A DNA stretch of 64,000 nt from contig RKRR01000119.1 in NCBI GenBank assembly GCA_007571305.1, positions 21,954 to 85,953 of the forward strand, given 5' to 3'. Positions 1 through 12,974 of the stretch are shown here, in pieces. The position numbers were made by a program, and so were the translations under genes. The first letter of the stretch is position 1. Each line of letters starts with the position of its first letter. A model generated the notes under the pieces. That model did no database searches. It had not been told where the DNA came from and saw only the letters and a program-made list of their open reading frames with translations. The stretch comes from Candidatus Poribacteria bacterium. Lineage in GTDB: Bacteria > Poribacteria > WGA-4E > WGA-3G.

Positions 1-24
1 ATCACTTACCTTTGCTTGAGCATA

Positions 25-846
25 CTAACTTGCATATACTCTAATCACTGTACCTAAATGGAACCGAACTAAGGCAGCAGTCGCGACCTGACGAAGTGCG
101 AAACTGACCCCAGCTATCGGGCTAACGCGCTTCGGTTTCCCTAACGTGATGTTCTGAAAACCGTGCTTCCGAAGTAAATTTGGTAAGGAACGCGCAGAAA
201 AATAGTAGAGATGATCGCGTGGGTGGACATAGGGCCAATTCGCTTTCTGGACACGACTCTGCAAACTCTCACCGTTCGGGACTTCAATGACAAGGGTCCC
301 TGTCTGAGGCTTCAGAACCCGGCGTAACTCGCTGAGGAGTGGATTTAATTCCGAGATATGCTCCAACACATGGTAGAGTGTAATCGCATCGAAGTGGGCA
401 GATGGAAACTCCGCCTCAAATATGTCTCCGCACTTTACATCTAATTTATACATTTCCTGTGCAAAAGCACTACCACTCTTGGATGGCTCAACGCCGTGTG
501 ATTCCCAATTCTGCTCGCGCGCGAGGCGGAGGAACGTCCCGATACCACATCCGACATCTAAGAGCCGTCCCTTACGTTGATGCTGTTTCTCCAACTCGGT
601 CAAACGTTCCGCCATCTGCAACCACTCCATGTTGTCAGTATGGATACGTTCTACTTTATCCGGCGGATAGTAAGTCTCAACATACTCATCTTCAAGCATC
701 TGACGATTTATCCTCGGATTCACATAGCGCAACTGACATCGCTTACAGACTACCACCGATAAGGCATCCTTACTGAAAAGTTGAGATGTATCATCTCGCT
801 CACAAATTGGGCAGTTGATCCGTTCGAGATTGTCTGTTTTCATCAT
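25..846 (-). CDS. class I SAM-dependent methyltransferase with N-terminal Cys4 zinc ribbon
   Basis: ORF 25..903. It has CPIC...CKRC cysteine pairs, then LLDVGCGIGTF (motif I, GxGxG). Start placed at the internal MM (846), leaving a 25-bp gap to the upstream gene; 903 remains possible. Confidence 0.75.
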   Translation of the reverse strand: MMKTDNLERINCPICERDDTSQLFSKDALSVVVCKRCQLRYVNPRINRQMLEDEYVETYYPPDKVERIHTDNMEWLQMAERLTELEKQHQRKGRLLDVGCGIGTFLRLAREQNWESHGVEPSKSGSAFAQEMYKLDVKCGDIFEAEFPSAHFDAITLYHVLEHISELNPLLSELRRVLKPQTGTLVIEVPNGESLQSRVQKANWPYVHPRDHLYYFSARSLPNLLRKHGFQNITLGKPKRVSPIAGVSFALRQVATAALVRFHLGTVIRVYAS

Positions 847-871
847 TCTATAGGAGGGGTTGTAATCCCCA

Positions 872-1846
872 TTAGAAAAGGGGGACCCCTTGTGCTTCCA
901 CATAAACTGCGTAGAGAGACTGACTACCCATCATAAACAACCTATTTCTTTTCGTACCACCGAAACAGAGGTTTGCACAAATTTCTGGAAGATGAATCTG
1001 CCCGATACGTGTCCCGTCCGGTGCGAAGACATGCACCCCATCGTACCCGTCACCAACCCAGCCTGCACTCGCCCACAAGTTTCCATCGACATCACACCGA
1101 ATACCGTCGGCAATACCGGGAGCCATATCACAGAAAACCTCTTGCTCGCCTAACCTCTCGCCATCTATCACGTCATAGACGAAGAGGTGCCGCGGGGTCC
1201 CCTCTTTATGCGTAACCCCAGTATCCACGAGATAAAGTTTCTTATAATCGGGCGAAAAACAGATGCCATTCGGTTTTTCAAGCTCATCCGTTACAACACT
1301 TGCTTCTCCCGTATCAGGATTCAGGCGATAAACGCAGGTAGGTAATTCAAAGTCGGCTATATGCCCTTCATAGTTGAGCATAATACCGTATCCAGGATCG
1401 GTGAACCAGACATGCCCATCCGGGTGAACAGCGACATCGTTCGGTGCGTTGAGCGGTTTCCCGTTAAAGTTGTCCATCAGCACAGTAATCGTTCCGTCAT
1501 ATTCAGTTCGTGTGACGCGCCGTGCTCCGTGCTCGCAACTGATGAGCCTTCCTTGACGATCGCGGGTGTGTCCGTTGCTATAGTTGGAGGGTTTTCGGTA
1601 GACGTTTACTTCACCGGTGGATTCCTCCCATTTCAGTATCCGATTGTTCGGAATATCGCTCCAGAGCAGATACCCGCCGTCACCAAACCAGACGGGGCCT
1701 TCTGCCCAACGCGATCCTGTCCATAACCGTTCGACAACAGAATTGCCGATCTTATACTTTCCAAAACGAGGGTCTAACACCTCAATTGCAGGGTCTGGAT
1801 AGCGGACAATAGAATCATCCCATTTTCTTTCTGGTGGTGTCTGCAT
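872..1846 (-). CDS. SMP-30/gluconolactonase/LRE family protein
   Basis: ORF 872..1909. Sequence resembles beta-propeller lactonases (EGPVW, WSDIP, PNGI, DG.R.D). Start set at MQTPPERKW (1846), which has GGAGGA 8 nt upstream on the minus strand. Confidence 0.8.
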   Translation of the reverse strand: MQTPPERKWDDSIVRYPDPAIEVLDPRFGKYKIGNSVVERLWTGSRWAEGPVWFGDGGYLLWSDIPNNRILKWEESTGEVNVYRKPSNYSNGHTRDRQGRLISCEHGARRVTRTEYDGTITVLMDNFNGKPLNAPNDVAVHPDGHVWFTDPGYGIMLNYEGHIADFELPTCVYRLNPDTGEASVVTDELEKPNGICFSPDYKKLYLVDTGVTHKEGTPRHLFVYDVIDGERLGEQEVFCDMAPGIADGIRCDVDGNLWASAGWVGDGYDGVHVFAPDGTRIGQIHLPEICANLCFGGTKRNRLFMMGSQSLYAVYVEAQGVPLF

Positions 1847-2116
1847 GCAATTTTCCTCCAAGTTGGGTTGCAAATGGTAGAATGTTTCGGTCAGGTAATA
1901 GTATATCACAAATCCGGGTTTTACGCAAAAACTGGGAGCCTCGTATTAGGGTATTTATGGTAACTTGTAAAAACAAATAGACACTCCCCCTTCCAGTAGG
2001 CGAGGTTAGGAAACCTCGCCAGTGAACAGTGTTCAGTTAATTCTAAAATCCACTATAAATGCCTAAATTTTTGATAAGGTATTGTTTTTTTCATAAGTCA
2101 ATGATAGAATATAAAT

Positions 2117-4780
2117 ATGCAACATCTCTTTGAAAAACTACGCGAAGACACCCAAAACTGGCGCGACGAAGGGTACTCTTCCCCAGATTATCCACTCATC
2201 GGAGAAATACTACGCTACCAATTTGAAGGTGAAACAGATAATCGTGTCCATCTTAAATACCTCCGCGAACCGCAATTCCAATCGCTGGAGCTCTATTGGT
2301 ACCTGAGATTAGTACTAAAAACTCCACATATTGCTGAACTTTACAGACACTACTACGATACCGGCGATATACGCGATTTTTGCGAAGCATTCGGGATCCC
2401 GATTTCCGCTAACGAACTGATATTGATTAGGGATGTTGACACGATTATTGACTTGGTAAAAAACAACCCCGAATTCGTCAAACAGAAGCAAATTGATCCG
2501 GTTCACGAGGCTGTGACGCTTCCGTATCCGAGTTACATCTTCGCGCTTGCGATGGGCACCGGTAAGACGGTTCTTATTGGCACTATTATCGCAACCGAAT
2601 TCGCGATGGCACTTCGTTATCCCGAAGGCGAGTTTATGAAAAATGCCCTCGTCTTTGCCCCCGGCACAACCATTATTGAGAGTCTACGTGAAATCAGCGA
2701 TATTCCCTTCGATCATATCCTACCGTCCAGTCTACACAGCGATTTTCTTGCCAACCTCAAAATCACCTATGCACAGCCCGGGGCAAAAGAAATTCAAGTC
2801 CAAACCGGCAGTACTTACAACGTCATTGTCGCAAACACCGAAAAAATCGCGCTGCGGGCGAACGTAAAAAAACGGAGCAATCAGACAGAAATTGCGTTTG
2901 AGGAAAAGAAGGAACAAGCAGAATTAGTGGCAAACCTCCGCCTTCAAAAAATAACAAGTCTACCTAATTTAGGGATATTTTCAGATGAAGCACACCATAC
3001 TTACGGAAACAAAATAGACGCGGAACTTAAGCGGGTACGTGAAACGGTTAATTACATAGACGGGAAAACTAAACTCGTCGCTGTGATTAATACCACTGGC
3101 ACACCTTACGCCAAGCGGCAGATGCTCAGAGAGGTCGTTGCATGGTATAGTCTCGGTGAAGGAATCAGGGACAACATCCTTAAAAGTCTTCACAACGGCA
3201 TTGTTCAGTACCCTATCGGAACTATTCCTGACCAAGACGTGATCCGTAACGTTATCAGCGACTTTTTTGATAGCTATCGTGATGTATCATTACCCGATGG
3301 TGCGAAAGCGAAAATCGCCTTTTACTTCAGAACGCAAGAGCACTTAAACGCCTCCCTTGCGCACATTCAAAACGCGCTCACAGAAATCGGAGAAAGTACC
3401 ACACAAATACTTGTCAATACCCAAAAATCAAGTCCGCAGGAAATTAATGAGTTCAACCGACTCAACAATCCTGACAGCCAGAAACGTATCATTCTCCTTA
3501 TCGGCAAAGGGACAGAGGGGTGGAATTGTCCCAGTCTATTCGCTTGCGCACTTATCAAGGAACAAACGGCCAGTAGTAACTTCATCTTGCAAGCCTCAAC
3601 GCGATGCCTCCGCCAAGTGAAAGGTAATACACAGACAGCAAAAATCTTTTTGGATACCAAAAACAGTGCGATTTTAGACAAAGAATTGCAGGCGAACTTT
3701 GGAACGACACTCGGCGAGCTCCGCACGCAAGACGTGGAAACGGAAGAGGTCGCGCTCCGCATTCGTAAAACCGATTTGCCGAAATTACAAATCATGCAAT
3801 TGGTGCGCCGCGTTGTTCCGCTGGAAAATACGCCTAAAGCGATTCAGTTGCATAAGCCAGCAGACGTTGAGAAGACTCCGCCTGCTTTTCGCAGCATTCT
3901 GACTCCCGATTTCACACAGCGAACTACTTCGCCGCTAACAGCGTTGGGCGCACAAGATGAGGTGGAAATTGCTAATCAGACAACAGATTGCTACACACTG
4001 ACAAGACGACTTGCAACAAACTATCATCTTTCTGTTATAGAGACCCTCAAAAACCTCAAAAACCTCTATCCAGAGGGACAGGTCCCTTATGAACACTTCG
4101 ATGCGCTATGTAGACAGGTGGAAGACCAGCAGCAAAATTACGAAGTGATTGAGGAACAAATTGCAGAGCATCTCGCGCTTATCCGTATCCACGATGACGA
4201 CGGCAACCTACTTTTTGAAAAAGATGATACCGACGGTTCCTATGTTCACAAGGTGCGTCTGCGTAAGCGTAAGGCTGACCTCCTCCTCAGTGAAGACGAC
4301 TTAGATGACAACCACGATGTGAGTTTTCATTATATGCCCTACGACTTCGATAGTGCCCCCGAACAGCACTTCTTTAAAACGATTTTAGCAACCTTGAACC
4401 AATCCGTTGCAGATGTTGAAGTATTTCTGTTTACCGGTAGTTTGGCAAATACCAAGAAAACCGATTTTCATTTTGAATACAAAGGCACTGATAACAATTA
4501 TCATCGCTATTTTCCTGATTTCGTTATCGTCAGGAACACAGGGGAGTTCTACATCGTTGAGATTAAGTCTGAAAGTGAACGCGGCGACCCTACTGTCGTT
4601 GCAAAAAAGAAAGCAGTGAAACGTCTGGCAAGATTGCAACCCGATGCTCACTTTGAATATAAAGTCATTTATACAAGGGATGCCTCTCTCCAAGAGAATT
4701 TAGACGAAATGCAAACTATCCACGAATGGATTAATAGGAACGAAACCATGCAGAACGATGGCGAAAATAATTTAGCGTGA
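2117..4780 (+). CDS. res: Type III restriction enzyme Res subunit (SF2 helicase plus C-terminal PD-(D/E)xK nuclease)
   Basis: Walker A is ALAMGTGKT and the DEAH box is FSDEAHH. TTGTPY, GTEGWNCPSLF and QASTRCLRQV match Res motifs III, V and VI. C-terminal FPDFVIV...YIVEIKSE is a PD..ExK nuclease motif. Confidence 0.85.
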   Translation: MQHLFEKLREDTQNWRDEGYSSPDYPLIGEILRYQFEGETDNRVHLKYLREPQFQSLELYWYLRLVLKTPHIAELYRHYYDTGDIRDFCEAFGIPISANELILIRDVDTIIDLVKNNPEFVKQKQIDPVHEAVTLPYPSYIFALAMGTGKTVLIGTIIATEFAMALRYPEGEFMKNALVFAPGTTIIESLREISDIPFDHILPSSLHSDFLANLKITYAQPGAKEIQVQTGSTYNVIVANTEKIALRANVKKRSNQTEIAFEEKKEQAELVANLRLQKITSLPNLGIFSDEAHHTYGNKIDAELKRVRETVNYIDGKTKLVAVINTTGTPYAKRQMLREVVAWYSLGEGIRDNILKSLHNGIVQYPIGTIPDQDVIRNVISDFFDSYRDVSLPDGAKAKIAFYFRTQEHLNASLAHIQNALTEIGESTTQILVNTQKSSPQEINEFNRLNNPDSQKRIILLIGKGTEGWNCPSLFACALIKEQTASSNFILQASTRCLRQVKGNTQTAKIFLDTKNSAILDKELQANFGTTLGELRTQDVETEEVALRIRKTDLPKLQIMQLVRRVVPLENTPKAIQLHKPADVEKTPPAFRSILTPDFTQRTTSPLTALGAQDEVEIANQTTDCYTLTRRLATNYHLSVIETLKNLKNLYPEGQVPYEHFDALCRQVEDQQQNYEVIEEQIAEHLALIRIHDDDGNLLFEKDDTDGSYVHKVRLRKRKADLLLSEDDLDDNHDVSFHYMPYDFDSAPEQHFFKTILATLNQSVADVEVFLFTGSLANTKKTDFHFEYKGTDNNYHRYFPDFVIVRNTGEFYIVEIKSESERGDPTVVAKKKAVKRLARLQPDAHFEYKVIYTRDASLQENLDEMQTIHEWINRNETMQNDGENNLA

Positions 4781-4869
4781 GTTTGGTATAAGTGGTAGTT
4801 CTCATACTGTTTGGATGAAAAAGAAAAGGTTGAAAACTTGCTAAAAATGCCTTACACTTAATCAGACTT

Positions 4870-4885
4870 GCAATCAGATGATTGC
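4870..4885. promoter_or_regulatory. candidate operator palindrome upstream of the toxin-antitoxin pair
   Basis: gcaatcaGAtgattgc has 7-bp perfect inverted arms about 50 bp upstream of the antitoxin ATG. AATCAGA occurs twice, at 4860 and 4872. Confidence 0.3.
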
Positions 4886-4936
4886 ACTGTACCACAGCAT
4901 TGGCATCACTAACCACTTTTTGTATGGAGGCCCTCA

Positions 4937-5155
4937 ATGACAAAGCGACTTGAACTAGCTTTTACAGAAGCATCAAAGCTCTCACCGAAGGAACAAGATG
5001 CCCTGGCAGATTGGTTACTTGCTGAACTTCACTCTGAGAGAAAATGGGATAGATTATTCGCAGATTCTCAAGAGTTATTATCTAAACTGGCTTCTGAAGC
5101 ACTCGCAGAATATCATAGTAGTCAAACACAGGAATTCGATCCAGACCAACTATGA
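4937..5155 (+). CDS. type II antitoxin (small acidic addiction-module component)
   Basis: 72 aa, with GGAGG 8 nt upstream. Its stop overlaps the toxin start (ATGA). Helical acidic sequence (LSPKEQDALADWLLAEL) is typical of antitoxins paired with RelE/ParE toxins. Confidence 0.65.
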   Translation: MTKRLELAFTEASKLSPKEQDALADWLLAELHSERKWDRLFADSQELLSKLASEALAEYHSSQTQEFDPDQL

Positions 5156-5421
5156 ATTCAAAAACGACAAAACGCTTCCGTCAGATGCTGGCGAAATTAC
5201 CAGGTAACATCCGACAACAAACTAAAGGGGCCTACAGACTATTCACGGAAAACCCACACCATCCAAGCCTGCAATTCAAGAAAATACACAACACTGAGGC
5301 AATTTACTCCGTTCGTATCAACATCAACTATCGAGCGGTTGGTGTTGTCAGGAACGGAGTAATCGTTTGGTTCTGGATCGGTCCACATACAGAATATGAG
5401 AAGTTGCTTGATCAACTTTGA
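5152..5421 (+). CDS. RelE/ParE-family type II toxin
   Basis: 89 aa. The pattern F...L..LP......A...L..NP.HPSL.FKKI...IYSVRIN.NYRAVG.....VIVWFWIGPH.EY matches the RelE/ParE superfamily. It overlaps the antitoxin by 4 bp. Confidence 0.75.
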   Translation: MNSKTTKRFRQMLAKLPGNIRQQTKGAYRLFTENPHHPSLQFKKIHNTEAIYSVRININYRAVGVVRNGVIVWFWIGPHTEYEKLLDQL

Positions 5422-5821
5422 GATTTAGGACTTATGAAATAATTGGGCTTGTGGGATAATATTGTATTATGGCAACTGAAAGAATAATCACAATGAATAC
5501 AGACATTGGACTTCAGCAATGCACAATCCCTTTTAAAGATTATCTTTTTAAATATCTGAGGGTGGTTCATAAATGATTTATTGATGCAAATACAATTCCT
5601 TCCTTTTCCAAATATCCTACTGCGGAGAAAATACAAAAAACAATGGAACTTTTAATCCGGAGACTGAAACACACGGAAGATGCTCCAAAACCCAAAAAAG
5701 CATCTATTCGATGCTATACATCTTGGGATAGTTTTGTGCAACAAAAATGTCTAAACTTAAGATACTTGGCCGAACAGGAAAAAAAATGGCACTCCAACCT
5801 ACAACATAGGAAGAACACACA

Positions 5822-7498
5822 ATGAAAATCAAGCCAGTTAAAGGCAGACCGATGCTGCACTGGGTTGGCAAACGCCCAATTGACATAATAAGCAATTATC
5901 CTGCCCAATTGGTGGATACATATAACGTTGAAAACCCAGAGAAAGAACCGACCTATGACAAATTTAAAGACGGTCCTAATCTCCTTTTTCACGGTGATAA
6001 CAAGGAGATTCTTTCCACGCTGCTGGTGCAAGGTTTTCGTGGCAAAATAGACCTCATCTACATTGATCCGCCTTTTGACAGCGGTGCAGATTATGTACGG
6101 AAGGTAGCACTACGCGGTGAACAGAATAACTTGGAGGCTGAAGGACATTCTGTTATTGAACAGACACAATACACAGACATTTGGGCAAACGATAACTACC
6201 TCCAATTCATGTATGCACGACTCATTTTGATGTACGAATTGCTATCAGATAAAGGTTCAATTTACCTACATTGCAACCATGAGAAGAGTCACTATTTGAA
6301 AGTCCTCATGGATGAGGTATTTGAAAAAGACTTATTTCAAAATGAAATTATTTGGTACTACAAAAACGCCTCTCGTGGAAAAAAGCGATTAGCTCATGCA
6401 CATGAGACTATTTTCTGGTACACCAAATCGCCGGACAAATATATTTTTAACCGAGATGAAATTCTGGTTCCTTTCGAAAGTAGAATGACGGAGTGGCGAT
6501 ACAATAAAGGAGGACAAGCAGGAAACGATATGCCTAAAGGTAAAACCCCTGACGACGTTATTATTCTCCCTTCTCTTAACACCATGGATGGGGAACGTTC
6601 TGACTTTCCTACCCAAAAACCTGAAACTCTGGTAGAACGCATCATCAAAGCCTCAAGCAACGAAGATTCCATTATCCTCGATTACTTTGCAGGAAGTGGT
6701 ACCACTGCCGCCGTTGCTGAAAAACTCGGCAGGCGTTGGATTGCTGCAGATATCAACAAAGGTGCAATCCAAACAACAATAAAAAGACTTCAAAAACTAC
6801 CTGACATGCAGCACGGTATTGCCCACTATCGTGTTAATAACTACGATGCCAGTACACATTTAGAACGAAGAGATATTGTGATAAAGAAATATGGCGTGCA
6901 AACGGAGAGACAAGAGGCGTTCTTTGATGGTACGCTGGATGGCACACTCGTCAAAATTATTGACTTGACGAAACCGCTCGCCCCGTTAGATATTCAAGTG
7001 ATTAAAGACGAACTTGAGAATCGTCCAGAAGAGTCACGCAACATCACGGTATTTTGTTACGGTATCAATAGAAGCATTCAAGCAGAACTCAAGGCGGAAA
7101 ACAGACGGCGCGCAGTCAACAAAATCTTTGTGCGTGACATCGGGAGCGAAGGCATCACGACTTTTGAACCTGCAGCAGCGGATGTTAATTTCGAGAGAAA
7201 AGGAAATAGTGTCAAAATTACCATCGCAGATTATATAAGTCCAACTATCTTAGCACGGATGGATATTGACCGCACAATTTTCGACGAGCAAATCGCCGAC
7301 TTCCGTTCACAGATTGATTGCGTCCTGATTGATACCGACTATACAGGTGAACATTTCAAAATAGTTGAGAGCGACGTACCGAAGAAAAAGGAAGATTTTG
7401 TTGACGGGGAATACATGGTATCGTTACCACGTCCAGATGCCCGCGTCGCCATAAAAATCATCGACATGCTTGGTGAGGAAACTGTTGTTACGGGATGA
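5822..7498 (+). CDS. mod: Type III-like DNA methyltransferase Mod (beta-class N6A/N4C)
   Basis: N-terminal LHWVGK. Motif IV is DLIYIDPPFDSGADY, followed by FPTQKPETLVERII and motif I, ILDYFAGSGTTAAVAEKLGRRWIAADI. About 230 aa follow motif I. Confidence 0.88.
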   Translation: MKIKPVKGRPMLHWVGKRPIDIISNYPAQLVDTYNVENPEKEPTYDKFKDGPNLLFHGDNKEILSTLLVQGFRGKIDLIYIDPPFDSGADYVRKVALRGEQNNLEAEGHSVIEQTQYTDIWANDNYLQFMYARLILMYELLSDKGSIYLHCNHEKSHYLKVLMDEVFEKDLFQNEIIWYYKNASRGKKRLAHAHETIFWYTKSPDKYIFNRDEILVPFESRMTEWRYNKGGQAGNDMPKGKTPDDVIILPSLNTMDGERSDFPTQKPETLVERIIKASSNEDSIILDYFAGSGTTAAVAEKLGRRWIAADINKGAIQTTIKRLQKLPDMQHGIAHYRVNNYDASTHLERRDIVIKKYGVQTERQEAFFDGTLDGTLVKIIDLTKPLAPLDIQVIKDELENRPEESRNITVFCYGINRSIQAELKAENRRRAVNKIFVRDIGSEGITTFEPAAADVNFERKGNSVKITIADYISPTILARMDIDRTIFDEQIADFRSQIDCVLIDTDYTGEHFKIVESDVPKKKEDFVDGEYMVSLPRPDARVAIKIIDMLGEETVVTG

Positions 7499-7608
7499 TG
7501 CTAAATTTGTCCTGCTAAATCAGGTTATAGGGTAGCCTTCCCGTATCTGTCCGTTTTACTAGACAATTCAATACCGACTGAGTGCAAAATAGTCGAAAGG
7601 ATTTAAAA

Positions 7609-8742
7609 ATGTCTGACGAAATGAAACCGGATCTGCCGGCAACTACCGAAGATGAAACTAATTCTACACTTGGCGTTGTCACTGATCTTATATTGGATTC
7701 AACTATTCCCGTTTCAATCAGGCGCAACATGTTTAAAGTTGCTGATCGACTATGCTCCGCTTTAATTAAAGTACCTGTTGAAGCTCTTGAGCGGAGAACC
7801 GCCGAAAAACGGGCAGAATCAGAAGCACGAATTAAAATTGGACAAGAGGTTACTGACCAAATTATCCAACAAATAAAGGTCGATCCGGAATTCCCACAGA
7901 GAGCAGGAACCTCATTTGCCAAAAAAATACTGCGGGAACAGTTCAATTGTGAAAAAATCCTGTCTATTGCTGCAAACCAACTTAAGAAAGTGAAATACAA
8001 TAGTTCGACAGATCAAAACATTGAGAGTGAAGTAGAAAAGTTGATTGACGACGATTGGTTTAACGCTTTTGAGAAAGAGGCAAATCAAAAAAGTGACAAA
8101 GACATGCAGCATCGTTTCGGTCGCGTCTTAGCTGGTGAGGTTGCAAACCCCGGGTCGTATTCAATAAGGGCTGTGAAAACCTTAGGGGAGCTAGACCTAA
8201 AGGCTGCTCGTTTGTTCGAAACATTATGTTCCTTATGTATAGTTTTAGGAGATCCAATGCAAGGACAAGTTATTGATGCCAGAGTTTCTTCTCTAGGCGG
8301 AGACGCGAATGCAAATACCCTGCGAGGATATGGCTTGGCTTTTTGTGATCTTAATATATTAAACGAGTATGGGCTCATTACCTCGGAATACCACTCCTCA
8401 CATGGATACTATGAAGTTGTACAAAATGAGAATACCCAACGTTGTTTTCCATTCTGGTATCAAGGAAATTATTGGGGTTTATGTCCTTTACCAGGGTGGA
8501 GAAAAGAAGATCGGTTTAATCTTAGATTGTCGGGAGTTGCTCTTTCTCAGGTTAGCCGCGAACTATTACGCGTAGTTGATCTGGATCCAGCGGATGAGCC
8601 CCTGAAGACCGCGAGGCAGGAATATACTACAGATCTAAAAAAATACTTTGAAGATCAGAGATTAAGAATGGCTGAAGCCCAACTCAAACTGGAATACTTT
8701 GATGGTCATCCAATTCCCTCCGCCCATTATTATGTCCGGTAA
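7609..8742 (+). CDS. hypothetical protein, DUF2806-like
   Basis: ORF 7582..8742 starts on GTG; an ATG at 7609 is preceded by AAAGGA. The DDDWFNAFEKEA..KSDKDMQHRFGRVLAGEVANPGSYSIRAVKTLGELDLKAARLFE block resembles my recollection of the DUF2806 signature. Family call made from memory only. Confidence 0.5.
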   Translation: MSDEMKPDLPATTEDETNSTLGVVTDLILDSTIPVSIRRNMFKVADRLCSALIKVPVEALERRTAEKRAESEARIKIGQEVTDQIIQQIKVDPEFPQRAGTSFAKKILREQFNCEKILSIAANQLKKVKYNSSTDQNIESEVEKLIDDDWFNAFEKEANQKSDKDMQHRFGRVLAGEVANPGSYSIRAVKTLGELDLKAARLFETLCSLCIVLGDPMQGQVIDARVSSLGGDANANTLRGYGLAFCDLNILNEYGLITSEYHSSHGYYEVVQNENTQRCFPFWYQGNYWGLCPLPGWRKEDRFNLRLSGVALSQVSRELLRVVDLDPADEPLKTARQEYTTDLKKYFEDQRLRMAEAQLKLEYFDGHPIPSAHYYVR

Positions 8743-8925
8743 TGTTGAATGATGTAATGGTCAATCGTAGGATTGTCTTTTGTAAAGTTTGCGATGTAAT
8801 ACCATTCCTATATGGATAGTTTTCATAACAGGTATTCTTCAGAAATTCCCTGATAAGAGGGATTTAGGTGGTTTCTGACAGGGATAGCACCTTATTGGGA
8901 AAGTATATTTCGCGAATGAATATAG

Positions 8926-9253
8926 TAACGTGAGTTTGATAAATATTTGTCTATTTTTTCAAGAAAGAGACCTCTTTTGGTATAATGAAGTAAAACCCTT
9001 TCATTGTTCGATACGGTGTTCCTGAAAAAGCGGATACTGATTGAAGCAGTGATCCGGAAACTCAAAACACAGACACAGGTGGAATACACCCGGCAGAGAA
9101 GTTTTGAAAACTTTCAAGTCAATGTATTCTCGGAAACCTTGATTGCATATCAGTTGTTGGAGAACAAACCCTCGCTGAAGGGCACTGAACTGCAGCAAAG
9201 CAAGGATTCACACAAACTTTCTAAAACATAAACTTTTTTCAAACTCACGTTAT
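8926..9253. mobile_element. miniature, internally deleted IS remnant bounded by 14-bp perfect terminal inverted repeats
   Basis: TAACGTGAGTTTGA at 8926-8939 is the exact reverse complement of TCAAACTCACGTTA at 9240-9253. The element carries only a transposase C-terminal fragment. Confidence 0.6.
9004..9231 (+). pseudogene. DDE transposase C-terminal fragment (IS982/IS4-like)
   Basis: 75-aa ORF. KRILIEAVIRKLKTQTQVEYTRQRSFENFQVNVFSETLIAYQL resembles the conserved IE..F..LK....EH.RHRS..NF..N....L.AY transposase tail. No catalytic core is present. Confidence 0.55.
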
Positions 9254-9398
9254 AATTACATTAGGTTGTGATTAATATAGACAGACGTAGCATTCAATAA
9301 GTATGCCCATCCTGACTTCAACTTTAGCATAGGATAATCACCATACCAAACGGTCGATAAAGTCCACCAACATGTGAAAACATAAAGGACAAAAACGC

Positions 9399-10652
9399 AT
9401 GGCACTTCCAAAAATGACACGGATTCAGCAGACGTTTGAAGCACCCGTTCTCACCAACCTCCCCGCGGCGATTCACACGGAATTAGAACGGATTAACGCC
9501 TCTGCTATTATCAAACCCGGCGAGACTGTCGCCGTTACCGCGGGAAGCCGCGGCGTTGCGAATGTCGCGACTGCGGTCAAGGCGACTGTTGATTATCTCA
9601 AGACACTCGGTGCGCACCCCTTTGTCGTTCCAGCAATGGGAAGCCACGGGGGTGCAACGCCTGAAGGACAACGGAGTGTGCTGGAACATTACGGTATCAC
9701 CGAAGAGACTGTCGGCGCCCCCGTGAAAGCGACAATGGAGGTCGTAGAACTCGGAAAGACGGCAGACGGCTTGCCTGTTTTTCTGGATAGGTATGCCGCT
9801 GAGGCGGATCACGTTGTACCCCTCAATCGCATTAAAGCACACACAGATTTCAACGGCTCCATCGAGAGCGGCGTGATGAAGATGATGGTCATCGGGCTTG
9901 GCAAACAAGAGGGTGCGAACTTTTACCATCGAGCATTCTTCCAGTACGGTTTTGAACACGTCATCACGGCTGTCGGTGGTTTCATCCTTGACAGCGGAAA
10001 AATCGCTTTCGGCATCGGGCTCATTGAGAACGCACACGAAGATACTGCGAAAGCTGTCGCCATGCCCGCTGCACAACTCCTCCAAACCGAACGTGAACTC
10101 CTCGTCGAAGCGAAATCGCTGATGGGACGACTGCCCTTTGATGAACTCGATCTGCTCATCGTGGATTGGACAGGTAAAAATATCAGCGGCACAGGTATGG
10201 ACACGAATGTCATCGGCAGGATGATGCAAAATTTTGAGCCGGAACCCGCAAAACCTGCAATCCTCCGTATATTTGTCCGAAATCTCACCGAAGAAAGCGA
10301 CGGGAACGCCACTGGCATCGGACTCGCCGATTTCACGACGACCCGTCTCGTGGACCAGATTGATAGACACTCTACCTATATGAACGGTATCACCGCGCTT
10401 GGACCACAGAAGTCGAAAATCCCGTTCTACTATGACACCGATCGGGAAGCGATTGAAGTGGCACTCGATACCATCGGTCTCACCGAGCCGGAGGATGCGC
10501 GCGTTATCCGTATTGAGAGCACACTGAGATTAACGGAACTCGACATCTCTGAGGTGTTGCTTGAAGATGCGAAACTGCATTCGAGGTTAGAGGTCATCAG
10601 CGAAACGAAACCGTTTGCATTTGACGCAGCGGGCAACCTGTTACCGTTTTAG
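9399..10652 (+). CDS. LarA-like (DUF2088, lactate racemase N-terminal domain) protein
   Basis: 417 aa. PAMGSHGGATPEGQ parallels the LarA GTHR loop, and the overall layout is LarA-like. AAGGA sits upstream of the start. Confidence 0.5.
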   Translation: MALPKMTRIQQTFEAPVLTNLPAAIHTELERINASAIIKPGETVAVTAGSRGVANVATAVKATVDYLKTLGAHPFVVPAMGSHGGATPEGQRSVLEHYGITEETVGAPVKATMEVVELGKTADGLPVFLDRYAAEADHVVPLNRIKAHTDFNGSIESGVMKMMVIGLGKQEGANFYHRAFFQYGFEHVITAVGGFILDSGKIAFGIGLIENAHEDTAKAVAMPAAQLLQTERELLVEAKSLMGRLPFDELDLLIVDWTGKNISGTGMDTNVIGRMMQNFEPEPAKPAILRIFVRNLTEESDGNATGIGLADFTTTRLVDQIDRHSTYMNGITALGPQKSKIPFYYDTDREAIEVALDTIGLTEPEDARVIRIESTLRLTELDISEVLLEDAKLHSRLEVISETKPFAFDAAGNLLPF

Positions 10653-10877
10653 ATAGCCATCAGTTATCAGCCGTCAACAGGTCAGTGAACGCCGCGAGCA
10701 CGGCTCGCTCCTACAAGAATAGAACTATCAGCAGTTGGCAGTCGGCTAAAAGATTATCAGCCCCACAAAGGTTTCCCTTTCGGATTGATGGAAACCAACG
10801 GTTTTCGCATTAAGATAGCCTCAAAACCAAGAGCCCGTAATGAAATGGAAGGGCGGATCTAAGGGAAGCCCGTGGTA

Positions 10878-11025
10878 GTTTATAGTAGATTCCGTAATTA
10901 CTCAGGACTTACGCAATTTTGACTATAGAATGCCTTGTGAGAAGGAGAACCCCAAAAAAACACAGATGTTCTCGTGGCACAACCTAACAGGTTATGCTAC
11001 AAAAGAGCAGCATGCGTAAGTCCTG
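10878..11025 (-). repeat. dispersed intergenic repeat, family R2, copy A
   Basis: Read on the minus strand: GTAGCATAACCTGTTAGGTTGTGC (10977-11000), the 21-mer GTCAAAATTGCGTAAGTCCTG (10903-10923) and the tail TAATTACGGAATCTACTATAAAC (10878-10900). An inverted partial 13-mer lies at 11013-11025. Confidence 0.7.
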
Positions 11026-11075
11026 TTACTTATACATTTCGTCGTGTGAACTCTGAAGTTATATGTTTCTAATGA

Positions 11076-11141
11076 CACAGGAAACTAACGGTCTCCTATG
11101 CTACAAGTGTGAACCTGTTTTCGGATTTCACTATAAATGCC
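11076..11141 (+). repeat. dispersed intergenic repeat, family R1, partial copy A
   Basis: CACAGGAAACTAACGGTCTCCTATGCTAC (11076-11104) nearly matches copies at 51610, 57158 and 60680. It ends in the 13-mer CACTATAAATGCC. Confidence 0.65.
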
Positions 11142-11169
11142 GGTTGTTCCTCCGCAAGGGAAAATTAAC

Positions 11170-12021
11170 ATGCGGAAACTTAAGATTATCTTGGAGATGA
11201 TTAAATTTGAACACACGATCTTCGCGCTTCCGTTTGCTGTCATGAGTGCCTTCATCGCTGCAGATGGACTCCCTTCGCTGGCGAAGTTTGGCTGGATTCT
11301 CGTGGCGATGGTAGGAGCGCGCAGCTGCGCGATGGCGTTTAACCGACTCGCCGATGCCGAATTTGATGCGAAGAACCCACGGACCGCCATGCGTGCGATC
11401 CCCGCGGGTTTGATTACCAAGGGCACCGTGTGGTGTTTTACCCTTATCTCTGCTGGACTGCTGGTCTTTGCGGCGTGGCGACTGAATCCACTCGCTTTTG
11501 CACTGTCCCCAGTAGCACTTGTTGTCGTTATGGGGTATTCCTATACGAAACGTTTTACTGCACTTTCGCACTTTTGGCTCGGACTTTCCCTCTCCATCTC
11601 ACCTGTCGGCGCGTGGATCGCGATTCAGGGCAGTTTTGCGTTGCCACCGATAATTCTCTGCCTCGTGGTGCTGCTCTGGACAGCAGGGTTTGACATTATC
11701 TATGCGTGTCAAGATGTTAATTTTGACAAAAAGCATGGGCTGCACTCGATACCCGCGAAAATCGGAATCCGGTGGTCGTTGTGGCTGTCGTCTGCTCTGC
11801 ACGTTATCGCGGTGTTGCTACTTCTCGGTATTCCATCCCTTGTCGAGTTAGGGCTTTTTTATTATATCGGTGTTGGGATTGTTGTACTAATCTTTATCTA
11901 CGAACACGCCATCGTCAAACCGACGGATCTGTCCCGTGTCAATCTTGCTTTTTTCACACTCAACGGCACGATTAGCTTGGTCCTGATGGCACTTTCAATT
12001 GCCGATATTTTGTTTTTTTAA
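11170..12021 (+). CDS. UbiA-family aromatic polyprenyltransferase (4-hydroxybenzoate polyprenyltransferase/MqnP-like)
   Basis: Carries FNRLADAEFDAKNPRT (NxxxDxxxD), a second Asp-rich motif (YACQDVNFD) and multiple TM segments. Start moved to MRKLKIILEMIKFEHT because the 11137 ATG lies inside a repeat motif. Confidence 0.85.
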   Translation: MRKLKIILEMIKFEHTIFALPFAVMSAFIAADGLPSLAKFGWILVAMVGARSCAMAFNRLADAEFDAKNPRTAMRAIPAGLITKGTVWCFTLISAGLLVFAAWRLNPLAFALSPVALVVVMGYSYTKRFTALSHFWLGLSLSISPVGAWIAIQGSFALPPIILCLVVLLWTAGFDIIYACQDVNFDKKHGLHSIPAKIGIRWSLWLSSALHVIAVLLLLGIPSLVELGLFYYIGVGIVVLIFIYEHAIVKPTDLSRVNLAFFTLNGTISLVLMALSIADILFF

Positions 12022-12152
12022 GGATTGGGTTAAGGCACTCCGATCCCCGGCTAAACCCAAACGGTACCACATAGCGAAGTAGAATGCGGACCAACGGAAA
12101 GGCACATCAATATACAAACTCGCCTCACCGAACCGCAAGGTAAAATTAAAAT

Positions 12153-12974
12153 ATGAAACTTTCACTTTCCGTACGCGTCGCAGAAACGGCATCGAAAAGA
12201 GACGCTACGCATAATTTTGAACAATTGACTGAACTGGCATCAGGACTCGGCTACGAGGCGGTCTGTATGCGTGCCTCTCAAGTCGGTATCCAATCGCCTT
12301 TGGAACACATTACCGCCGCGAGCAAACAGGCAGCGTTGCTTAACCTGAAGGTCTCGATGGTCACCGGTGATTTTCCAGTCCCTCTCAACAACGAACAGGG
12401 ACCAGATGGACTCCGCAACATAACCCCCTATTTGGATCTAACGGAACTCCTTGGCGCGGATCTCATCCGCATTGCAATGAAGGTTGAGGCCGATATTCCA
12501 TGGGCACAACGGGCTTCCGATGAAGCCGCTGAGCGCGGTATTCGTCTCGCGCATCAATCGCACACACAGAGTTTGTTTGAAACGGTAGAGGGTTCTGTTG
12601 ATGTGTTAAAACGGGTCGGTAGAAAAAATTTCGGAATTATCTATGAACCCGCCAACCTTGACCTCTGTGCTCAGGATTACGGTGTTGAGACACTCAAACG
12701 GTTCTCGCCGTATCTCTTTAACGTGTACCTGCAGAATCACATCCGCAGACCAGAGGGGAAGACGCGGCTCTTGACATGGATTCAGGGTGAAGTCCCGCAC
12801 GATCCGATCCGTTTGCAGGACGAAGGTGGCATCGATTTTCCGTTAGTGTTTCGTGGATTGGAAGCGATCGACTACGATGGGTATGTGACGGTGCATCAGG
12901 CGTTCCGTGAGATCATGGAGCCTGAAGACGCAGCAGAGCAGAGTTACACCTATCTAAAACCGTTTTGTGGATAG
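12153..12974 (+). CDS. sugar phosphate isomerase/epimerase (xylose isomerase-like TIM barrel)
   Basis: 273 aa with AP-endonuclease-2/xylose-isomerase-like barrel features (IRIAM, YEPANL, VTVHQ). Confidence 0.65.
   Translation: MKLSLSVRVAETASKRDATHNFEQLTELASGLGYEAVCMRASQVGIQSPLEHITAASKQAALLNLKVSMVTGDFPVPLNNEQGPDGLRNITPYLDLTELLGADLIRIAMKVEADIPWAQRASDEAAERGIRLAHQSHTQSLFETVEGSVDVLKRVGRKNFGIIYEPANLDLCAQDYGVETLKRFSPYLFNVYLQNHIRRPEGKTRLLTWIQGEVPHDPIRLQDEGGIDFPLVFRGLEAIDYDGYVTVHQAFREIMEPEDAAEQSYTYLKPFCG

Follow-up and report, generated by a model that had tools for sequence, protein, structure and literature searches.

Type III restriction-modification (R-M) systems such as EcoP1I and EcoP15I have two subunits. 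Mod is a beta-class methyltransferase with a DPPF motif, in which a variable central region lies between conserved ends. Res joins a superfamily 2 (SF2) ATPase to a nuclease of the PD-(D/E)xK type at the C-terminus, and lacks its own recognition domain. Such systems act at an asymmetric site that becomes hemimethylated, need two sites in inverse orientation, and cleave ~25 bp away at the expense of ATP. In the phage P1 record mod precedes res. Here we describe a locus of a Candidatus Poribacteria bacterium that shares these protein features but has the two genes in the reverse order. It lies in a 64,000-nucleotide stretch of contig RKRR01000119.1 (assembly GCA_007571305.1, positions 21,954 to 85,953), which we call the window. 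Five genes on the + strand encode Res, a small antitoxin, a toxin of the RelE/ParE superfamily, Mod and a DUF2806 protein. A map of open reading frames (ORFs) and profile searches place a lactonase gene on their left and a LarA-like gene on their right (Table 1). We think it likely that this is a modular anti-phage defense island on a res-first, Type III-like R-M scaffold, and not one obligate machine.

Defense genes are known to be embedded in multi-gene systems, which has been termed guilt-by-embedding (Payne et al. 2024, bioRxiv 10.1101/2024.01.29.577857). TgvAB is embedded in a Type I R-M system of V. cholerae (PMC11411939), and PrrC in the Type Ic system EcoPrrI (PMC12707154). The DUF2806 domain is found in Belisama, a single-gene integron cassette of V. 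cholerae with distant similarity to Abi-alpha, that is reported to lead to abortive lysis upon infection and to be toxic when over-expressed (bioRxiv 10.1101/2024.07.02.601686). Embedding in R-M is thus a known theme. What is new here is the res-first Type III-like family of hosts, and not a new kind of system; embedding in a Type III-like pair is not reported in the published surveys of Hma, BREX, DISARM and Type I R-M.

An earlier note on the window had proposed a horizontally acquired composite immunity locus of low G+C content that may work as one unit. Its five co-oriented genes, the lactonase and LarA-like flanks, the separation of res from mod by a toxin-antitoxin (TA) pair and 400 bp of AT-rich spacer, and the end of the island at the remnant of a miniature insertion sequence (IS) were all borne out. 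Its reading of an accessory immunity locus also stands, given the SF2 and PD...ExK motifs of Res, a Mod that resembles that of EcoP15I and a site that is variable among relatives. Other parts of the proposal fared less well, as discussed below.

Table 1. Coordinates of the island, its components and its flanks in the window. Related loci are designated by L numbers here and in the text.
Feature	Position	Strand	Remarks
SGL-type lactonase gene	872-1909	minus	Left flank
Left border, divergent intergenic region between lactonase gene and res	1910-2116	.	ORF map and sequence; nucleotide synteny with L022 (window 23-1912) ends here
res	2117-4780	+	887-aa restriction subunit
Sigma-70-like promoter module	4822-4862	+	-35 TTGAAA at 4830, -10 TACACT at 4853; promoter scan match 4830-4858
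Antitoxin gene	4937-5155	+	72 aa; 4-bp overlap with toxin start; no Pfam family
ParE-like (RelE/ParE superfamily) toxin gene	5152-5421	+	89 aa; PF24732
AT-rich spacer, 400 bp	5422-5821		Toxin end to mod start
HigA-like antidote remnant, first ~27 codons	5478-5558	+	tblastn and blastn against related loci
mod	5822-7498	+	558-aa beta-class N6-adenine DNA methyltransferase
Hypervariable target-recognition region of mod, codons 181-260	6362-6601	+	Column conservation; tandem paralogs
Short-form DUF2806 gene	7609-8742	+	377 aa; candidate abortive-infection-type defense gene
Miniature IS remnant (MITE-like), 327 bp	8926-9252	.	Inverted repeats plus transposase fragment
Right border	9253-9383	.	L083 nucleotide synteny starts at 9384, 15 bp before LarA-like gene
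LarA-like nickel-pincer isomerase gene	9399-10652		Right flank

The Res and Mod proteins

A helical domain at the N-terminus of Res is followed by an SF2 helicase/ATPase, with a PD-(D/E)xK nuclease at the C-terminus. The SF2 motifs GTGKT, DEAHH, TGTP, EGWNCPS and QASTRCLRQ (family form QxxxRxxRQ) are present, together with the nuclease motif P800-D801...E815-x-K817. The residues of the helicase and nuclease motifs are invariant in alignments of 42 and of 25 sequences, in which the homologs are 42-88% identical. Pfam matches are to ResIII and to the TnsA-like endonuclease N-terminal family. The ORF is full length, with a DGENNLA terminus that is shared by close homologs. NCBI submitters have named homologs 'restriction endonuclease subunit R'.

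In Mod the DPPF motif IV (aa 82-85) precedes the FAGSG motif I (aa 288-292), the order of a beta-class N6-adenine methyltransferase. The protein matches Pfam N6_N4_Mtase (1.9e-52), and among solved structures EcoP15I Mod (4zcf_A, 2.8e-22) and RsrI (2.2e-22). A PADLOC run, which the earlier note had called for, identified Mod as MTase_III (1.3e-68; best matches MTase_III and MTase_II) and gave no restriction endonuclease (REase) match for Res. Alignment of 70 Mods of the family reveals that aa 1-180 and 261-558, including a C-terminal domain (aa ~335-558), are conserved, while aa 181-260 are hypervariable, with a column conservation of 0.30-0.39 compared with 0.6-0.93 elsewhere. Other Mods of the family have ~31 more residues in this recognition region than that of the window. 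No second copy of res or mod was found within the window.

The R-M system is therefore Type III-like, in that it has Type III architecture and a Type III Mod; membership of the EcoP1I lineage is not demonstrated. Compared with EcoP1I, the window Res is only marginally similar in sequence and is missed by the Type III REase models of PADLOC. We found no simple-sequence repeats in res or mod of the kind that give phase variation, another difference from Type III systems.

The res-first family and its cargo slot

We scanned one genome per species (185,579 species) for relatives of Res, which are found in 244 loci; protein clusters of the family number over 3,200. Of the 80 loci that were fetched, 74 have a mod on the strand of res and downstream of it, and most of the remaining six are on truncated contigs. 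These res-mod loci span Poribacteria, Latescibacterota, Nitrospirales, Desulfobacterota, Planctomycetota, Bacillota and others. The great majority of homologs of the island proteins belong to Candidatus Poribacteria or to other symbionts of sponges. The identities of Res and Mod to the window proteins are correlated (r = 0.91 over 52 loci), which indicates joint inheritance of res and mod. The earlier note had presented the res-first, split arrangement as a departure from classical Type III systems. The order is real, but it is not a local peculiarity; it is the rule in this family.

The distance between res and mod falls into two classes. The two genes adjoin each other in 34 of the 74 loci, with a gap of less than 260 bp, while in the other 40 the gap is 0.44-4.5 kb and holds cargo. 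In 39 of these 40 the longest ORF of the gap is co-oriented with res and mod, compared with 96.7% reported for embedded genes in the guilt-by-embedding survey. The largest cluster of gap genes encodes a Gp49/HigB-type toxin plus an antidote with weak similarity to HI1420/HigA. TIR-TPR proteins of 495-741 aa are found in the gap in seven loci. Further cargo assigned by Pfam comprises MazE plus PIN; ThsB-like TIR plus 8xMP membrane proteins; DUF6978/DUF1828; an SDH-type protease; DUF5343 plus Hypoth_Ymh; DUF6602; HSDR_N-HTH; DUF2971; and Fic. Several cargo proteins belong to no family. The TIR, PIN, Fic and uncharacterized proteins overlap with the cargo types known from embedding in other hosts. 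Cargo is present in 13 of the 14 loci with a Res at least 80% identical to that of the window, and in 4 of the 16 at 40-50% identity. The interval between res and mod is thus a tolerated and recurrently used slot for co-oriented cargo. On the 3' side of mod ten recurrent genes were sampled, of which three match nothing in Pfam and seven are annotated with common cellular functions (RecQ, FAD oxidase, aminotransferase, chaperonin, polysaccharide synthesis, lectin-fold protein and Ser/Thr kinase).

The start of mod is also conserved. Some 20 nt ahead of its ATG (…aggaa.aacacaATG) are kept across loci, and the 3' end of the MazE-like gene abuts this leader in several of the loci examined upstream of mod (L001, L006, L012 and L032). 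In L004 the stop codon of a PIN cargo gene (4093-4629) overlaps the ATG of mod (start 4626; ATGA). The arrangement suggests that cargo may be translationally coupled with mod.

Some loci have more than one full-length mod in tandem behind a single res, there being three in L035 (13104-18443, from OY282383.1), and two each in L022 (12767-17058) and L009 (12831-19786). Within the recognition block the tandem paralogs are only 10-27% identical, compared with 87-100% (L035, L022) or 64-86% (L009) outside it. The recognition block of the window Mod is 92% identical to that of the third mod of L009. These arrays suggest that one Res might serve several specificities, and they set the family apart from Type III systems. 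The pattern of the family consists of the res-first order, one slot for cargo, a promoter module common to different TA cassettes (see below) and multi-mod arrays, and the locus of the window is an ordinary member of it.

A single Poribacteria genome can carry up to four diverged copies of res-mod, with Res identities of 62-84% (L011, L023, L028 and L032, all in OZ242325.1). Two to three loci of the family are present in each of OZ244563.1, OZ250160.1, VYCT01, VXZK01 and JAJEGI01. Such multiple diverged copies are paralogous templates for recombination. Some members of the family have been damaged. Internal stops are found in res of L023 (10001-12655), L046 (10001-12631) and L066 (3417-6062), and mod is fragmented or split in L024, L026, L009 and L071. 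Inactivation is therefore common in the family.

The cargo of the window

In common with type II TA systems of the ParDE/RelE superfamily, the window has a small antitoxin gene followed by that of a ParE-like toxin, with an ATGA overlap at 5152-5155, a promoter-like sequence ahead and inverted repeats nearby. It differs from these in that the antitoxin lies outside known families, and in that the module is lodged in an R-M operon. The toxin matches Pfam ParE_like (5.6e-9) and a RelE-like toxin of PHROG (6.9e-6). The pair is found directly after res in L004, L005 and L010, and the antitoxin alone in L062. The antitoxin is 75-81% identical to the genes at the same position in these four loci, and the toxin is 80-84% identical in L004, L005, L010 and L019. 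In L019 the pair lies upstream of res, and in L011 the antitoxin alone lies downstream of mod.

A sigma-70-like promoter module, AAAAGGTTGAAAACTTGCTAAAAATGCCTTACACTTA, precedes the TA cassette of the window, as judged from a scan for consensus matches. The module is found after res in nine related loci, ahead of cassettes of both the ParE type and the HigB/Gp49 type. It precedes the HigB-type cassette at L001:14404, L011:12706, L012:12714, L014:13984 and L033:12708, and further positions are L004:3244, L005:12670 and L062:12686. One promoter module ahead of two unrelated types of TA cassette implies that cassettes have been replaced behind a fixed promoter. A promoter module common to two cassette types distinguishes these loci from previous cases of embedding.

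The region between toxin and mod had been taken as a mere spacer. It proves to carry the beginning (~27 codons) of a gene for a HigA-like antidote, with 81% identity over 27 aa to the antidote-like proteins of L034 and L012 (tblastn, E = 4e-12) and 83-86% nucleotide identity to the antidote gene of L033, L034, L011, L012, L018 and L001 (blastn). The spacer is therefore decayed earlier cargo. A 60-aa ORF at 5643-5825, which has an ATGA overlap with the start of mod, was considered as a candidate control gene resembling those for C proteins. It has no homolog in the related loci by tblastn or blastn, and we treat it as spurious and probably not a gene.

The DUF2806 gene

The last gene of the island encodes a protein with a DUF2806 domain (PF10987, 3.3e-22, aa 97-264). 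It also matches TIGR03899 (1.1e-17), at a score below the curated cut-off. An identical 377-aa protein is on record, which indicates that the true start is the ATG at 7609. An AlphaFold model of reasonable quality (pLDDT 78, pTM 0.73) has no structural neighbor in the PDB (best E = 0.36), and a search of BFVD matched one unnamed phage protein (E = 2e-9).

Homologs are found after mod in L020, L032 and L061. Among seven other contexts sampled, three are inside Type I R-M operons, with the order hsdM-[8xMP/SLFN/BrnT-CopG]-DUF2806-hsdS-[PIN TA]-hsdR, and four are outside R-M loci, beside BrnT toxins. In four sampled loci a long form (403-443 aa) has a BrnA/CopG-like N-terminal segment (…EEIGEFWDTHSL…). 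In three of these (L144:6730-8212, L145:6730-8332 and L146:6730-8311) there is an overlap between its gene and the 3' end of that for a BrnT toxin, and in the fourth (L147:7001-8329) there is only a 42-aa ORF upstream. In L142 (7045-9134) the order is BrnT, CopG antitoxin, short DUF2806. These arrangements suggest that DUF2806 may be TA-coupled in its origin or regulation. From the variety of contexts we conclude that it is a mobile module associated with defense and TA genes, not one that is specific to res-first R-M.

Like Belisama the window protein is encoded by a stand-alone gene in a defense context, and the two are likened by the shared domain only. The differences are that DUF2806 genes are here attached to R-M operons, that long-form relatives with a BrnA-like N-terminus follow a BrnT toxin gene, and that the window protein has no solved structural relative. 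The Type I operon of L142 also contains a called gene of 1202 aa (9148-12756), with a Type I HsdS specificity domain plus NACHT/NCH2. This is either a fusion of HsdS with a nucleotide-binding leucine-rich-repeat (NLR) protein or a merger made in gene calling.

How the island might work, and alternative explanations

By analogy with EcoP15I, a dimer of Mod would recognize a short asymmetric site through its variable region at aa ~181-260, and methylate adenine. Res, having no recognition domain of its own, would dock on Mod, communicate along the DNA with the aid of ATP and cut unmethylated invading DNA. The modules of the island would act independently and in layers, with restriction first, and the TA pair and DUF2806 protein as stabilizing or abortive back-ups. 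What would keep them together is that genes lying inside an addictive R-M pair, or next to it, share its transcription and are not easily lost. Recombination between the highly conserved flanks (res 3' and mod 5') in paralogous or allelic loci would exchange cargo as well as recognition regions.

A number of points weigh against this modular reading. Besides lacking a REase match in PADLOC, Res has no sequence match in the PDB, whether queried as a single sequence or as either of two profiles. With hhalign it can be aligned to EcoP1I Res solely in helicase lobe 2, at probabilities of 31% and 12% (E = 5e-4 and 2.5e-3). A Foldseek search with its AlphaFold model, which is of mediocre quality (pLDDT 64), returns generic SF2 helicases, among which EcoP15I Res (4zcf_C) ranks seventh, so that the fold match is itself generic. 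Function in restriction and methylation for the res-first family is thus attributed by analogy. The antitoxin has no family match in Pfam, NCBIfam, PADLOC or PHROG, even at E ≤ 10. The cargo survey took in 80 of the 244 loci detected, and the Pfam scans of cargo were made with cluster representatives only. Lastly, the intact ORFs of the window are probably active, yet the IS and gene remnants among them show that there has been local decay.

The idea that the five genes work as one unit can be taken further, to a single interdependent immunity machine in which the TA pair or DUF2806 protein senses failure or inhibition of R-M and kills the cell, as PrrC does for EcoPrrI, and in which the splitting of res from mod is functionally required. 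The co-orientation, short gaps and absence of + strand terminator-like sites within 1850-9450 (in a scan for consensus matches only) would fit such a machine. So would the recurrence of the ParE-like pair immediately behind res in three other loci and of the antitoxin alone in a fourth; the three DUF2806 genes that follow mod and the three of seven inside Type I operons; and the precedents of PrrC and TgvAB. But 34 of the 74 family loci have no cargo, and the cargo families differ widely between close relatives. The TA pair can lie upstream of res and the antitoxin alone downstream of mod, four of the seven sampled DUF2806 homologs are outside R-M, and Belisama works as a single gene. We therefore consider an interdependent machine unlikely. 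The proposal of one unit survives only in the weak sense of a shared location and probable co-transcription, with res and mod alone being co-inherited.

The difficulty of assigning Res could alternatively mean that Res and Mod are not a restriction system, but a helicase-nuclease and a methyltransferase serving epigenetic regulation, repair or a non-R-M defense like Hma or DISARM. The PADLOC result, the marginal Pfam ResIII score (24.1 bits against a cut-off of 22.5), the weak similarity to EcoP1I Res and a gene order unlike that of canonical Type III systems all lean this way. Against them stand the invariance of the nuclease and ATPase motifs across homologs, the strict pairing of res with mod and their correlated divergence, and a hypervariable recognition region in Mod, as an arms race predicts. 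The multiple diverged copies per genome, the defense and TA cargo inside the loci and the submitters' naming of Res homologs point the same way, and PADLOC gave no Hma, DISARM or BREX match for Res, the TA pair, DUF2806 or Mod. This makes a non-R-M function very improbable, the least probable of the explanations considered. Nor do we favor the view that the island is a decaying, inactive relic in which R-M no longer functions. The dead IS, the truncated antidote gene and a drift to low G+C are what would be expected of a relic, and relatives with internal stops in res or fragmented mods do exist. However, all five ORFs of the window are full length relative to their homologs, every catalytic motif is intact, and a segment from the DUF2806 gene through the IS remnant to the LarA-like gene is present in identical form on an independent metagenome contig of the Joint Genome Institute. 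A relic is thus distinctly improbable, and a modular island on a res-first scaffold is the explanation that we prefer.

A bolder extension of the modular reading is possible, although we hold it to be rather doubtful. The family might be a dedicated platform for defense cassettes, integron-like, driven by recombination and expanded in sponge microbiomes. The slot, running from the res 3' end and promoter module to the ~20-nt mod leader, would swap TA and anti-phage cassettes, and tandem mods would give one Res several specificities. On such a platform the short-form DUF2806 protein may be a guardian of R-M, by analogy with PrrC.

The res-first family is a further host in which anti-phage systems may be discovered through embedding. 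It differs from the hosts surveyed so far in being a two-gene, Type III-like system with a single well-defined slot between the genes for restriction and modification. The uncharacterized proteins of the slot are candidates for new defense functions, including one of 431 aa in L001 and L002, one of 356 aa in L019, DUF6602 and DUF5343/Ymh. The multi-mod arrays suggest a previously undescribed way in which a Type III-like enzyme could hold several specificities. Since PADLOC recognizes Mod and not Res, res-first systems would be scored as orphan methyltransferases. It has long been noted that sponge symbionts are enriched in R-M and TA genes, and the present results add concrete content to this.

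Base composition, borders and the IS remnant

The G+C content of the island is 42.4%, against 48.1% in the remainder of the window, and it is the lowest 7.1-kb stretch of the 64 kb (sliding windows: minimum 0.422, mean 0.475, standard deviation 0.016). The earlier note had counted about 35% inside and 60% outside. That contrast was overstated, with 60% being a local peak; the highest 400-nt window near the island has 56.5%. We also compared the genes individually, including their G+C at third positions (GC3). For 33 long ORFs outside the island the G+C is 0.490 ± 0.018 and GC3 0.50 ± 0.036. There is strong deviation in mod (0.427, GC3 0.419) and in the DUF2806 gene (0.421, GC3 0.347), but res (0.451, GC3 0.472) deviates only mildly. 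The spacer has 34% G+C (counted over 5401-5800).

Both flanks can be followed into relatives. On the right the closest metagenomic relative, L083, is syntenic at 88% nucleotide identity. Directly upstream of its LarA-like gene (L083:12-8994) there are genes for a 1284-aa TPR-PIN protein (PIN-TPR-GreABC family), DUF5615, half an HsdS, a HicB-DUF6575-Uma2 fusion and HsdR, so that a different defense island, of Type I R-M and TPR-PIN, occupies the same site. In L082 (LarA-like 82% aa identity) the site has LolA/MacB transporter genes and no defense genes. On the left the methyltransferase and lactonase genes are common to L022 (lactonase 90% aa identity), where next to the lactonase gene come a res of this family with only 67% identity, mod-DUF6932-mod and a housekeeping oxidoreductase. 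The synteny comparison suggested earlier, between the lactonase and LarA-like genes, thus found other content at the site in L083 and L082; no exact empty site was found, as the relatives recovered differ on the left flank. Variable content beside the same flanks indicates a long-standing variable defense locus with turnover of alleles and cargo. For res itself a recent horizontal acquisition is less clear than long residence with such turnover, since L022 has a diverged res-mod beside the same lactonase gene.

We found no integrase, tRNA or flanking direct repeat at the island, and no tRNA integration site, the nearest tRNAs being at 42.4 kb. There is no Rfam match in positions 1-12000 at E ≤ 0.1. 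The promoter of res presumably lies within the intergenic region to its left.

The IS remnant has 30-nt terminal inverted repeats (8926-8955 and 9223-9252) that are 80% complementary. Between them there is no intact DDE transposase gene (IS4/IS5-like, DDE_Tnp_1_3). A C-terminal fragment of 75 aa (9004-9231) matches positions 123-154 of the 155 in the DDE_Tnp_1_3 profile, and with only the last ~30 residues of the transposase remaining the element must be a dead, miniature and non-autonomous IS. An IS-end-like sequence TAGCGTGAGTTTGGTATAAGT (4773-4793) that resembles both ends of the remnant (8926/9252) overlaps the stop codon of res. We considered a composite transposon in which this third IS-end-like sequence (CGTGAGTTTG) is paired with the right IS end at 9252. 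The idea was dropped, since res in L033, L011 and L012 natively has this conserved 3' end, with one mismatch, where no IS is present, and since the window res is full length. The likeness of the res 3' end to the IS ends is probably due to chance.

Related IS copies are present in L006 and other Poribacteria loci. The inverted-repeat core CGTGAGTTTG recurs in oppositely oriented pairs separated by 0.13-2.5 kb (L006:7926-8949, L008:454-583, L020:4059-6594 and L001), a pattern that indicates an IS family with both full-length and miniature copies.

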